Of a stretch of 64,000 nt of DNA, positions 6,432-62,027 are shown piece after piece; the first letter of the stretch is position 1, and the number at the start of each line of letters is the position of its first letter. The translations under genes were made by a program, and so were the position numbers. This DNA comes from an uncultured Poribacteria bacterium. GTDB lineage: Bacteria > Poribacteria > WGA-4E > WGA-3G. The stretch is taken from NCBI GenBank assembly GCA_951813565.1, contig OX638351.1, forward strand, positions 1,056,001 through 1,120,000. Reading direction: 5' to 3'. Below the pieces are notes generated by a model that had not been told where the DNA came from, ran no database searches, and worked only from the letters and a program-made list of their open reading frames with translations.

Positions 6432-6453
6432 TAGTTTGCGCATCTTGGAACAC

Positions 6454-6512
6454 GGGGAATCATGGCGAATATCATACGCGTATTCGCCCAATAGCATTCA
6501 TACCGTTGATTT
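6454..6512 (+). repeat. 35-nt hairpin cassette carrying an inserted 25-nt cassette
   Basis: GGGGAAT[CATGGCGAATATCATACGCGTATTC]GCCCAATAGCATTCATACCGTTGATTT; related to copies at 27073, 48997, 49333 and 58232-58384. Confidence 0.7.
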
Positions 6513-6613
6513 ACTAACAGTGTGCGTTACGAAAATTGCTTGGACCGAACTCACATTAACATACCTTGTATGGACAAATCTATTATTGCTGTCAATACAA
6601 TTTAGGAGAAAAA

Positions 6614-7024
6614 TTGAAAAAATATTTTAGTCAAGAATTCGTAGACAATACTGGCGCATGTCTATCTTTTGCGTGTGCGATCCACTGCATGGCGATGCCG
6701 CTTTTGATAACTATTTTACCTTTGATCGGTCTCAGTTTTCTCGCCAGTGAACCCGCGGAATTAGCCATCATCGGTGGGGCAGTCGTGCTTGCACTTGGAA
6801 GTATAGTTTGGGGTGTTCGCCATCACCGAAGTTGGCATGCATTCCTCGTACTCGTTGTGGCATTCGCATTTATCGCTACTGCTCACATGGCAGCTGAAGG
6901 CATTTATGAGGTGCTCTTACACAGCGGAGGAGGCATCCTACTTGCATCAGCACATCTCTTAAACCGCCATTTGTGTAAAACTTGCCCTGCATGTGAACAC
7001 GAACATGTTGGTGATTCTCATTAA
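6614..7024 (+). CDS. MerC-domain membrane protein, copy 2
   Basis: Paralog of 2145-2543 with a near-identical 5' end and RBS (TTTAGGAGAAAAATTGAAAAAATATTTTAGTCAAGAATT); His-rich tail CEHEHVGDSH. Confidence 0.8.
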   Translation: MKKYFSQEFVDNTGACLSFACAIHCMAMPLLITILPLIGLSFLASEPAELAIIGGAVVLALGSIVWGVRHHRSWHAFLVLVVAFAFIATAHMAAEGIYEVLLHSGGGILLASAHLLNRHLCKTCPACEHEHVGDSH

Positions 7025-10093: not shown

Positions 10094-10385
10094 TGAATCG
10101 CGGATTATGCGGATTTCACAGATTGCGCGGATTTTGGGCAAACCTGCTGTTATAGTAGATTTTACAATTGCTTATACGATGCAACAGACGAGGTTATATC
10201 AAATTAACTTGATTAGTATTTTTAGATAACGTTGGCATTGCGAGGCACGGGGACCTCTCGCTACAGATCACGTTAATTTGGTATTAGTACCTCACCTACC
10301 AGCCAATGTAAGAGGCGCAATGAATTGCGCGACTACAAACATTGATACTCTTAAAATCCGCGAAATCCGCATAATCCGTGATTCA
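10094..10385. repeat. Inverted pair of ~9-bp periodic CGGAT arrays
   Basis: TGAATCGCGGATTATGCGGATTTCACAGATTGCGCGGATTTT (10094-10135) faces AAAATCCGCGAAATCCGCATAATCCGTGATTCA (10353-10385). Confidence 0.8.
10197..10283. mobile_element. 87-bp MITE sharing termini with the IS630 at 14599-15751
   Basis: TTA|TATCAAATTAAC ... GTTAATTTGGTA|TTA; removing it restores the palindrome GAGGTTAGTACCTC. Confidence 0.75.
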
Positions 10386-27035: not shown

Positions 27036-27371
27036 GAGCGTATCTCATAAATCATTTGTAGGGCGAGGTCCCGGGGAATGCCATAAGGCATTCGGACCGT
27101 TGATTTGGTGCCTCGCCATCTCTCTCATAAGTGGAAACAATGGGCGGGCACAGGGACCCGCCCCATAGGTGTCAATTTAAGGATATATCCTCTTGTGGGA
27201 GTGAATCAACGCAGCATGCGCGTATGGCATGCTGCGTTGATTTGGATGAATGCCTACACGCGCATTCAGCGTTGATTTGGCAGCATGCCGGACGGGGAAT
27301 GCCATTTAGGCGTTCCCCGGATATGAATGCCATTTAGGCATTCCCCGTCTACCACTTGTGCGTAAGTCCTG
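27034..27371. repeat. Composite of REP-like palindromes and ~35-nt hairpin cassettes
   Basis: 35-mer at 27073-27107 inside a GTAG palindrome; tandem CGTTGATTTG-ended units at 27206-27346; 27034-27075 shared with 38494-38535. Confidence 0.8.
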
Positions 27372-48620: not shown

Positions 48621-48747
48621 GTTCTCCCCTTTTTCTGTTTTGTGGACTCTAAACAGAATTCCCGTAATCTACTGTTCATTGATTCTCCAATAATTACAAA
48701 TTATATCATTGTTTATTGACTTTGTGCAAGTCCTCAAGTTAATTGGG

Positions 48748-49203
48748 CAGGGTTATTTAGTTTTCTATATTTCTGATGCATTTTGTTACATGCGTTAATG
48801 CTTTATAATAGTATCGTCCGTTGGGTAGAACGTAGCGAAACCCATAACTGTCAATTTAAGCTTATAATTACCAGATTGTTTCTTGTGGGAGGGCTTTCTA
48901 AGCCCGATTTTGTAAATCTCAACCTGTTAAATCCAAATCAACGCTGAATACGCCAAATCAAGAAATCAACGGTATGAATCATGGCGAATGCCGGACGGGG
49001 AATGCCAAAGGGCATTCGGACCGTTGATTTGGCGCATGCTGCGTTGATTTGGCTGAATGCCCGCCAAATGCCACAGGCGCATTTGGCGTTGATTCAGGCA
49101 TTCATAGCGTTGATTTATGAGTAGAGCGTAGCGAAACCCAACGGACAATATAAACTTTCAGTAACACGCATCAACTGACAATTCTTAAAACTAAATAGCC
49201 CTG
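48748..49203. mobile_element. 456-bp non-autonomous element with a 10-bp TSD, loaded with nested repeats
   Basis: TIR CAGGGTTATTTAGTTTT / AAAACTAAATAGCCCTG; GTTAATTGGG on both flanks (48738-48747, 49204-49213). Confidence 0.85.
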
Positions 49204-49271
49204 GTTAATTGGGGTGTGTAAATATTTGGTTACATAGGTTCAATTTGCAATGATTACGCGGCGTTTTCCAC

Positions 49272-49384
49272 TGTAGGGGTGGGTCTCTGTGCCCCGCCAC
49301 TGCGCAGGACGTGCCATGCAACGGGCAGGCACCAAATCAACGGTCCGAATGCCTTTTGGCATTCCCCGGAGACCCGCCCCTACA
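49272..49384. repeat. GTAG-type REP doublet with a 35-nt cassette in one arm
   Basis: TGTAGGGGTGGGTCTCTGTGCC pairs with GGCAC[49333-49367]GGAGACCCGCCCCTACA. Confidence 0.8.
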
Positions 49385-49541
49385 ATGATGGTAGTAGGAC
49401 CTCTGAAAAGAAATCGGGCGGACAAAGCCCTCCTATAAGAGAGTTTCACGATAATTAAATGGTTCTGTCAAATTCCACTTGATATATGGCAATGTATCTG
49501 TTAAAATGACTCACAATTCTTTTGAAAACAGGGAGACCCTA

Positions 49542-57448: not shown

Positions 57449-58075
57449 TCAATAGTTATCTTGCCGTGCAATAACAACGCGACGCATATCACCTTCTCCT
57501 TGGCTAAACGTTGAGACGGTATCGTCCGATTGTAAGGCGAGATGAATCATGCGCCGGTCCTTGGCAGACATTGGGGCAAGAACGACATCTTGACGCGTCC
57601 GTTTGACTTTTGCAGCAACTTGATGGGCAAGGTCAACGAGCGTCTGCTCTCTGCGTTCACGGTAACCTTCGGTATTAACAAATACCTTTTTTTTAGCGAG
57701 TGCATTTTTATTGACGATACAATTGAGGATCCGTTCAATAGCATCAAGAGTCTGTCCATGTTTTCCGATCAGAAGTGCTGGTGAATCAGAAACCATGTTG
57801 AGGTGCAGACTTCCTTCAATGAAGTTAGATTCAACTTCACCATCAATACCTATCCGCGTGAGCATTTCCTTCAAAACGGTTTCTGGAGCAGTAGAAATAT
57901 CTTCCTTAAGAGTGGCACGAATTTTTGCGGGTTTCGCGCCAAAACTCAAAATACCTTTAGTCGGTTCATTAATAATTATGAGGTTAATCTGTTCGCGCGT
58001 TGCTTCAAGCTGCGTGAGTGCAATTTCAATTGCCTCTTCAACAGTTTCAGCTTCAGTTTCAATATAGTTTTGCAA
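57449..58075 (-). CDS. jag: Jag/KhpB RNA-binding protein (Jag_N, KH, R3H)
   Basis: TVEEAI..AL, LIGKHGQTLDAI, PM...RRMIH.AL, S.GEG..RRVVI. Confidence 0.92.
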   Translation of the reverse strand: MQNYIETEAETVEEAIEIALTQLEATREQINLIIINEPTKGILSFGAKPAKIRATLKEDISTAPETVLKEMLTRIGIDGEVESNFIEGSLHLNMVSDSPALLIGKHGQTLDAIERILNCIVNKNALAKKKVFVNTEGYRERREQTLVDLAHQVAAKVKRTRQDVVLAPMSAKDRRMIHLALQSDDTVSTFSQGEGDMRRVVIARQDNY

Positions 58076-58160
58076 TTGGCAGTACTCCTTTTATGCTGTA
58101 GAAGATTCACGCATGTATGTAAAAAATTTGTATTATAATTTGATAGAGGCCTTCTTATTA

Positions 58161-58453
58161 TAGTGAAACCCATAATTATTTGGACATTTTGTTCTTATGC
58201 GGATTTCAAACACACCATAAATCTCCGAGGCGACAAGTCATGGCGAATACCACACGGGGAATGCCTAAAGACGCATGCGCCAAATCAACGGTCCGAATGC
58301 CTTTTGGCATTCCCCGTATGGCATTCGCCATGATTCATACCGTTGATTTGGCGTATTCGCCCAAGTGCGCTTGGCGTTGATTTGGCAATGAATTGCGCGA
58401 CTACAAACACCGCTAACCTTAAGAAAATGTCCAGGTATTTTTAGATTTTTCTA
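58161..58453. mobile_element. TA-flanked MITE carrying a five-level nest of hairpin cassettes (58232-58384)
   Basis: TA|TAGTGAAACCCATAATTATTTGGACATTT ... AAATGTCCAGGTATTTTAGATTTTTCTA|TA. Confidence 0.75.
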
Positions 58454-58479
58454 TAAGATTTATACGATGAGGTCAAACA

Positions 58480-61221: not shown

Positions 61222-61734
61222 TCAATTAATATAAAGATACTTTTTCCAAGACGGATGGTAACCCCGAAAATGACGGTTGAGTTGCAAATATGTCAAGATT
61301 GATGGCGTTTTTGGTATTCGTTTCAACTTGAAATGCGTATCATGAAGCATCTGGCTGCCTTTTTTGTTGTTGCAGCGTTTACATGCGGTCACAACATTTT
61401 CCCAAGTTGTCTTTCCACCTTTTGAAATTGGGATAACGTGGTCAAGCGTTAGCAAAGAAGCAGCAAACTCTCGATGGCAATACTGACATACATGTTGGTC
61501 GCGCGCAAGTACATTCTTACGGGAAAACTTGACAACACTGCGCGGAACATGCACGTATTTTACCAAACGAATAACGTGCGGCACTTTGACAATAGCCGAC
61601 GGTGACCGAATTTCCGATTCAGACACTTCCTCTGTTTGAGCAGTTCCTTTGAAAACCATCTTCAAGGCGCGTCTGAGATTGCAAACGTTGATCGCTTCAT
61701 AACTGGCATTTAGCACTAAAACAGGTACTTCCAC
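61222..61734 (-). CDS. HNH endonuclease
   Basis: VLVLNASYE, RDQHVCQYC, TLDHVIP.SKGG, WENVVTACKRCNNKKG. Confidence 0.92.
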   Translation of the reverse strand: MEVPVLVLNASYEAINVCNLRRALKMVFKGTAQTEEVSESEIRSPSAIVKVPHVIRLVKYVHVPRSVVKFSRKNVLARDQHVCQYCHREFAASLLTLDHVIPISKGGKTTWENVVTACKRCNNKKGSQMLHDTHFKLKRIPKTPSILTYLQLNRHFRGYHPSWKKYLYIN

Positions 61735-61826: not shown

Positions 61827-62027
61827 GGTGTGTAAATACTTTGGCATTAACTATGTCATTTTCTTGTAGGAGGGCTTTGTCCGCCCGATAAATCCAGATC
61901 AACGCCAAATGTGCTTTTGGGCATTCAGCCAAATCAACGTCGAATACACCTATAGCATTCAGCGTTGATTCACAGTGAAGAGTCTTGAACCGAAGATCAA
62001 AATTGTAGGAAAAACTAAATAACCCTG
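61827..62027. repeat. Degenerate composite repeat
   Basis: GGGTGTGTAAATA end, GTAGGAGGGCTTTGTCCGCCCGAT REP, CAAATCAACG cassettes, AAAACTAAATAACCCTG end. Confidence 0.65.

Follow-up and report, generated by a model that had tools for sequence, protein, structure and literature searches.

The ways in which repeats shorter than 40 nt disperse through bacterial genomes are poorly understood, the movement of REP sequences having been inferred from in vitro nicking. The question is raised anew by an intergenic locus of an uncultured Poribacteria bacterium, a symbiont of sponges, where 153 bases (58232-58384 of the window, the whole 64,000-nt stretch of DNA that was analysed) split a REP-like palindrome lying between the housekeeping genes yidC and jag. 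An earlier note, made from the letters alone, had parsed these bases into five nested levels of hairpins, and both the coordinates and the nesting are as it wrote. The stack is genuine, and is built of 28-35-base mobile hairpins from two related families, here called types A and B. What are these units, how did they come to be stacked, and what moves them?

57449-58075, minus strand: jag gene (Jag_N, KH, R3H), the downstream neighbour of the nest
58158-58456, no strand assigned: MITE-like repeat forming the outermost level, its terminal inverted repeats imperfect; ~146 bp long where an empty REP is all it contains
58227-58408, minus strand: level 0, a GTAG-footed REP-like palindrome, split between 58231 and 58385
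58232-58384, plus strand: L1, a type-A element (hairpin and tail) with outer arms at ~58232-58238 and 58362-58384; with its contents, the 153-nt stack
58239-58361, plus strand: L2, a type-B element (CAT head and hairpin, 28 nt), in parts 58239-58255 and 58351-58361
58256-58350, plus strand: L3, a bulged type-A element in the loop of L2
58270-58332, minus strand: L4, an inverted type-B element in L3, in parts 58316-58332 and 58270-58280
58281-58315, minus strand: L5, a type-A 35-mer, intact and inverted, within the L4 loop
58480-60333, minus strand: yidC gene, the upstream neighbour of the nest

Type-A units are 34-35 nt long and start with CG; they have a small loop on a stem whose closing pair is C-G, and at the 3' side a TTGATT tail to which one or two variable bases are added. 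Type-B units (28 nt) start with a CAT head, followed by a stem related to that of type A, and have no tail. L2 lies inside the 5' arm of L1, and L3, L4 and L5 together form a 95-nt block that recurs across many hosts. The nest stretch folds at -47 kcal/mol (z = -5.5), and an Rfam search of it gave no match at the gathering score, the two miRNA-hairpin matches of 19 bits lying far under threshold. Each family sits in a target supplied by the other, as had been proposed, and the REP palindrome is indeed intact at 10312 and 50468. The proposal that removing each level restores a known unit fared less well: L5 has 16 exact copies genome-wide and peeled L2 has two, but peeled L1, L3 and L4 have none. 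Intact hosts of the L1 and L3 kind are present, with 5 and 24 pattern matches, but beside the type-B junction their sequence is not that of the peeled forms, which fits a type B of 28 nt that replaces up to ~4 host bases. The match of L2 to 6461-6485 stands at 23 of 25 bases, but the copy there is itself nested. The outer MITE at 58158-58456 is a further level that the earlier note had missed.

Both types recur elsewhere in the window, with approximate ends:

6453-6512, plus strand: type B inside type A, of the same families as in the nest
27073-27330, no strand assigned: type-A copies within REPs
48934-49367, no strand assigned: A/B nest, and a copy identical to L5
55544-55890, no strand assigned: large A/B nests and tandem A units
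61897-61975, minus strand: tandem type-A units

Against an expectation of 0.38, the window contains the 10-nt tail 15 times, and the commonest 10-nt type-A tail has 550 copies in the 5.43-Mb genome. Type A is a high-copy and mostly intergenic element, with 900 tails accompanied by a stem arm, 101 of them inside called ORFs. In a set of 123 different type-A cores, pairing at stem positions 3-7 and 9 exceeds that in all 500 column shuffles, in a test where positions 3 and 7 pass barely, kinship is ignored and the 3' arm forms part of the core selection; G-T pairs are tolerated. The orientation of copies relative to transcription is unbiased (250 versus 236), and no bias is seen between leading and lagging strands (259/550), the skew curve being irregular. 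Several further arrangements were observed. The repeat cluster of ~730 bp at 48741-49469 appears to be absent from the strains of sequencing runs X8 and X9, because contigs of these runs join 48740 straight to 49470. At L139:1774-1812 and in L038 the tail motif flanks both sides of the stem, giving one long palindrome. An HNH endonuclease gene (61222-61734, minus strand), upstream of rnpA, adjoins a type-A cluster, and MerC-family paralogues at 2094-2543 and 6566-7024 are 78% identical over 300 nt.

The type-A pattern is present in 83 of 99 genomes of the family to which the window belongs and in 0 of 51 other genomes, and the type-B pattern in 36 of the genus's 37 other genomes, falling to 0-3 matches per genome outside it; being specific, both patterns would overlook diverged analogues. 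The best 80 of 115 stretches in a scan of GTDB genomes comprise 78 from Ca. Poribacteria, one from a further bacterium with a true copy, and one chance match. The sequencing runs with the best matches include sponge metagenomes. Viral contigs were considered as carriers and set aside, since none of their 25 and 46 pattern matches has the element's sequence and stem.

Comparison of filled and empty alleles, as the earlier note had suggested, revealed empty sites both at orthologous and at paralogous positions. The GTAG-type REP is present in the genome in 156 empty and 89 filled copies. At the nest locus the split REP is enclosed by the ~146-bp inverted-repeat MITE, which often holds a REP; its ends number 89 on the left genome-wide, with 48 left/right pairs spaced 100-199 bp apart, and a search for its transposase found no match. 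Orthologous yidC-jag loci were taken from 14 relatives, 12 of them alignable across both genes, and neither the nest nor its MITE is in the gap in any of the 12. The gap is ~20 bases in four of these, contains other REP pairs in two, and in G003 contains an intact copy of the same REP as level 0 of the nest. The yidC-jag gap is an insertion hotspot within a conserved operon. Its inserts also differ by species in L012, L019, L022, L023 and probably L016 and L020, and include a small ORF-like stretch, a single REP, REP pairs and longer inserts. A joint that skips exactly the 153 nt, found in assembled contigs of all four sequencing runs, was discounted as evidence for an empty allele, being explained by empty paralogues because its short side is only 34 letters.

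Acquisition of the five levels by five separate insertions at this locus, as had been implied, is not supported, because the 95-nt inner block is met again in other hosts and species, as are whole 153-nt stacks. A copy of the whole nest at C1:1409524 is 97% identical and has other outer flanks, and the same five-level architecture, with covarying L2 stems, is found in G016, in G017 and at C1:4503008, all in other hosts. The 95-nt block has 16 copies in 12 flank contexts in the nest genome and is also present in other species and in different hosts with its type-A junctions kept (in 11 of 20 loci taken, two of them from the nest genome). Inserts in 81 of the 89 filled REPs reduce to 46 distinct sequences and form a ladder of sizes (34, 56-58, 69, 105, 129, 153, 161, 213 and 236 nt). 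We infer that what moves is delimited by the outer stem, with the contents of its loop carried along, and that the nest locus received ready-made blocks, the stack having been largely copied as such. Movement of the host REP or MITE, or its conversion, is probably responsible for the further spread of identical filled REP alleles.

Junctions of type A were audited in 243 distinct contexts of simple units, of which 79 have an empty paralogue. In 44 of the 79 the junction is compatible with a clean insertion, in 20 the target has lost one base, and in 15 it has lost 2-6 bases or the match is doubtful; the target-preserving junctions described earlier therefore do not hold for 35 of the 79 testable sites. 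The 5' end is fixed, usually after CC, and the preceding base is C in 129 of 158 distinct contexts. The leading C of the element is its own where the host has T at the same place: empty hosts have T at the leading-C position in 77 versus 0, 62 versus 1 and 53 versus 0 copies, all empty hosts being from the nest genome and the filled example of the last comparison from G014. The type-A element thus arrives with a 5' end that is constant and supplies a C of its own, and its 3' junction often costs the target one base or more. Entry between C and G, as first described, does occur, but it is only one case of this wider rule, in which the host base replaced was itself a C. At the 5' side the junction is reproducible and does not vary randomly, and the 3' junction varies. 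The type-B examples begin at a constant point after T, and their 3' ends vary, with a loss of up to ~4 bases. Neither type has terminal inverted repeats or a target duplication, in agreement with the earlier reading. The frequent double tail would, judging from the size ladder, be produced by an insertion replacing the G before the host's tail. At G000:C1:57860-58080 (G000 being the nest genome) six type-A units form an alternating 69-nt head-to-tail array, in which a C-G target is regenerated by each insertion. C or CC is all that is common before type-A junctions, with no fixed 4-5-nt target. Reconstructed empty sites are palindromic: of 225, 123 fold below -6 kcal/mol, compared with 57 of 500 CC sites picked at random. 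Several hosts were struck between CC and T within the end of an inverted REP.

Units have also entered coding genes. A beta-propeller gene of a neighbouring genus has 4 of its bases exchanged for a 34-nt copy, a net gain of 30 that stays in frame. Among the best 30 orthologous loci of 60 genomes matched, the site is filled in seven and empty in 23, and all filled copies lie at the same base of the gene. A tree of the flanks needs three changes and rejects a single clade (AU p = 7.6e-53), and the 45 bases on each side of the insert have no patch common to the two distant groups; the two groups do have one stem substitution in common. Two or more insertions at a single base are thereby indicated, and the pattern argues against spread by homology alone; short-patch conversion is a possible alternative source. 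Type-A copies also lie inside ORFs of the nest genome: a transposase-like gene present twice has the same insert in both copies (G000:C1:3913144 and 4876651-4877087), and another copy lies within a single-copy ORF (C1:4511609).

The proposal of non-autonomous, very small, self-nesting mobile units is supported, and any mechanism has to account for dispersed copies with empty sites, a fixed polarity, a preference for palindromic targets, covarying stems, and composites of 34-236 nt that recur. Our preferred reading, to which we give a probability of roughly 0.45, is single-strand transfer in trans by a Y1/HUH enzyme resembling RAYT (TnpA-REP). The two arms of one stem would act as the element's ends, so that anything in the loop, other copies included, would travel along. 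The enzyme would nick a single-stranded target after C, usually within a REP, and the target's 3'-OH would be joined to the element's 5' end; the 3' junction would then be closed less exactly, either by a second cut or by host trimming and ligation. In this scheme the identity of the enzyme, the nature of the intermediate and the reason for the base loss are conjectural. TnpA-REP in vitro cuts single-stranded DNA between C and T and joins strands, and one such enzyme also cuts between C and A or C and C (PMC3333891, PMC8266576). The hits between CC and T in inverted-REP ends are at sites like those that TnpA-REP cuts in vitro.

The nest genome encodes an IS200/605 TnpA, two intact RAYTs, at C1:242059-242472 and C1:5070821-5071234, and one interrupted, another Y1 family, 51 TnpB matches, two RTs and one tyrosine recombinase; none of these enzyme matches lies within the 64-kb window, where 14 of 64 ORFs were Pfam-scanned. 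G000 also carries a tnpB-only IS200/IS605-family element, in about 29 closely similar copies, together with a few tnpA-tnpB copies. Across 38 genomes of the genus, type-A counts have a median of 30 in 28 RAYT-positive and 7 in 10 RAYT-negative genomes (p = 8e-4; p = 0.004 at >=90% completeness), a correlation confounded by REP load and kinship that may only reflect more REP targets. Type-B counts do not track RAYT presence (p = 0.22), G014 has 45 A and 154 B matches and no RAYT hit, and no one RAYT clade is common to the element-rich genomes. A second Y1 family (L006 type) was rejected as the mover, being missing from G002, G046, G051 and G012 and not tracking copy number (p = 0.74). Of the enzyme classes that had been proposed, HUH/RAYT has weak correlational support and RT is disfavoured; as to recombinases, IS110 was not found and the only tyrosine recombinase is unlinked to the element. 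Base loss, the missing GT[AG]G foot and the lack of strand bias count against the Y1/HUH reading, and plain Y1 strand transfer is not expected to lose target bases.

A less probable explanation is that the units are moved by an enzyme that is not recognised, or by a host repair pathway, peculiar to this Poribacteria family, which would insert the hairpin as a single-stranded oligonucleotide by ligation at a nick or short gap. The frequent one-base target loss fits such a reaction, as does the occurrence of the pattern in one family (83/99 against 0/51) while RAYTs are present in both, being common also in Poribacteria families where the element pattern was not found. A gene flanked by the element's motifs, which the earlier note had thought worth seeking, was not found in 55 Y1 and 28 low-copy loci: no Y1 gene is bracketed by the element (0/55, a few having one copy in a flanking repeat), and the recurring neighbours at the low-copy loci are ordinary genes with no recurring transposase among them. 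Nor was a long autonomous version found; of 759 3' halves, 53 lack a matching arm within 150 nt, and these orphans were dismissed by eye as variant-arm composites, deletions or chance matches. This explanation is nevertheless without a candidate, since the listed multi-copy and HUH-motif proteins of the genome look by eye like familiar IS or housekeeping types, and junctions after C inside REPs fit RAYT chemistry. We likewise consider it rather doubtful that the elements form a separate class of mobile DNA, in which a hairpin of ~27 nt would serve as both ends, a lineage-specific enzyme would act on it, cargo of at least 200 nt would be tolerated in the loop, and site-specific insertion would replace one to a few target bases, reaching the same coding base more than once.

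It is improbable that no dedicated mobility exists, and that a few origins by template switching at hairpins were spread only by gene conversion, slippage and movement of the host REP or MITE. The many identical filled alleles and block copies, the alternating 69-nt tandem arrays, and the location of most copies within other repeats are what such processes would leave, and they probably still account for part of the copy number. As a sole cause they are largely refuted by the beta-propeller gene, a unique coding gene hit without flanking homology and with a single origin rejected, by the two further cases inside ORFs of the nest genome, and by the one polarity and one 5' junction common to unrelated hosts.

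Slightly less credible still is RNA-templated insertion, in which a hairpin transcript would be copied by an RT primed from the target 3'-OH to give one exact and one ragged junction. One junction is indeed fixed and the other variable, G-T pairs are allowed in the stem, and the nest genome has a cas1/CRISPR-adjoining RT and a second RT. Against this, no RVT_1 match was found in G006, G051, G046 or G012, which hold 103-287 copies (these genomes are 92-97% complete, and divergent RTs could escape the search), type-A counts have no link to RT presence (p = 0.75; 38 genomes), and the orientation of copies shows no bias relative to transcription. The first RT gene, cas1 beside it and a CRISPR array of ~54 repeats occupy G000:C1:3988991-3996100, with one nest directly downstream of cas1; the second is a stand-alone 511-aa RT at G000:C1:811749-813284, retron- or Abi-like by eye. 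Cas1/RT integration, suggested by the 35-nt size, was rejected on the grounds of no repeat duplication and patchy RT. Very unlikely is a mini-substrate of a recombinase or known IS (IS110, integron, IS607, IS91 or the ends of resident IS200/IS605 elements), for which the lack of terminal inverted repeats and target duplication, the 51 TnpB matches and a type-A tail that we take to be loosely like an integron core site could be cited, but no IS110 transposase was found in the nest genome (the only one searched, with a positive control), the lone tyrosine recombinase is unlinked to the element, and the TnpB-element ends, among those listed, are unrelated to it. A search of the nest genome for an IS91 Y2 transposase gave no signal, and neither did its control.

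With its hundreds of filled/empty pairs, its graded series of intermediates, its defined rule for junctions and its repeated hits on one coding site, the system would allow a short oligonucleotide assay to test RAYT-type enzymes as movers of such units. Should these enzymes prove to be the movers, types A and B would be parasites of a parasite; otherwise a hitherto undescribed single-strand insertion activity would have to exist, one whose recognition signal is minimal and tolerates cargo.

In a literature collection with few subscription journals, nothing published on these Poribacteria repeats was found. Closest in kind would seem to be the SDRs of Nostoc, compared by description only, and REPs. 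We know of no enzyme that moves SDRs. SDR1-8 of Nostoc and relatives, in work attributed to Elhai et al. 2008 (Genome Res 18:1484), are reportedly 21-27 nt long, self-nesting and conserved in structure. The resemblance lies in very small dispersed units with a precise insertion position and empty sites, and the Poribacteria elements have the SDR-like features of self-nesting and stem covariation. SDR5 inserts between bases 3 and 4 of HIP1 (PMC4390886), and Elhai et al. 2008 is cited in PMC2884548. The Nostoc repeats belong to another phylum, and the Poribacteria units differ in being 28-35 nt long, in having a fixed tail or head, in the loss of target bases, in their REP targets and in composites of up to 236 nt.

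REP, BIME and REPIN sequences with RAYT likewise occur as intergenic hairpins in hundreds, lack terminal inverted repeats and target duplications, and have a junction after C. They are defined, in PMC6006769, PMC3733652 and PMC3116915, by a GT[AG]G foot and by a RAYT gene flanked by the repeat, and occasional in-frame insertion into genes is described in the first two. Types A and B lack a GT[AG]G or CGTC foot, the GTAG foot being confined to the level-0 host, and they flank no gene, invade REPs and have a variable 3' junction. A REPIN is an inverted REP doublet, whereas here single units and head-to-tail arrays dominate. The foot and flanked-RAYT tests having failed, we do not file types A and B as REPs or REPINs, although they may work like a REP. 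The IS200/IS605 peel-and-paste elements and their non-autonomous derivatives are also strand-specific with hairpin-defined ends and no terminal inverted repeats or duplication (PMC3333891). Those elements have two ends and a fixed 4-5-nt target, whereas here there is one hairpin and target bases are lost, and the resident IS605-type element ends, among those listed, are unrelated. MITEs are similarly non-autonomous and nested, and the outermost level of the nest is one, but types A and B are far shorter and have neither terminal inverted repeats nor target duplication. Very small self-nesting mobile repeats are a kind already known, and the Poribacteria system is a real and unusual example, to which is added here block movement with cargo, a base-replacement junction and repeated insertion at one coding site.
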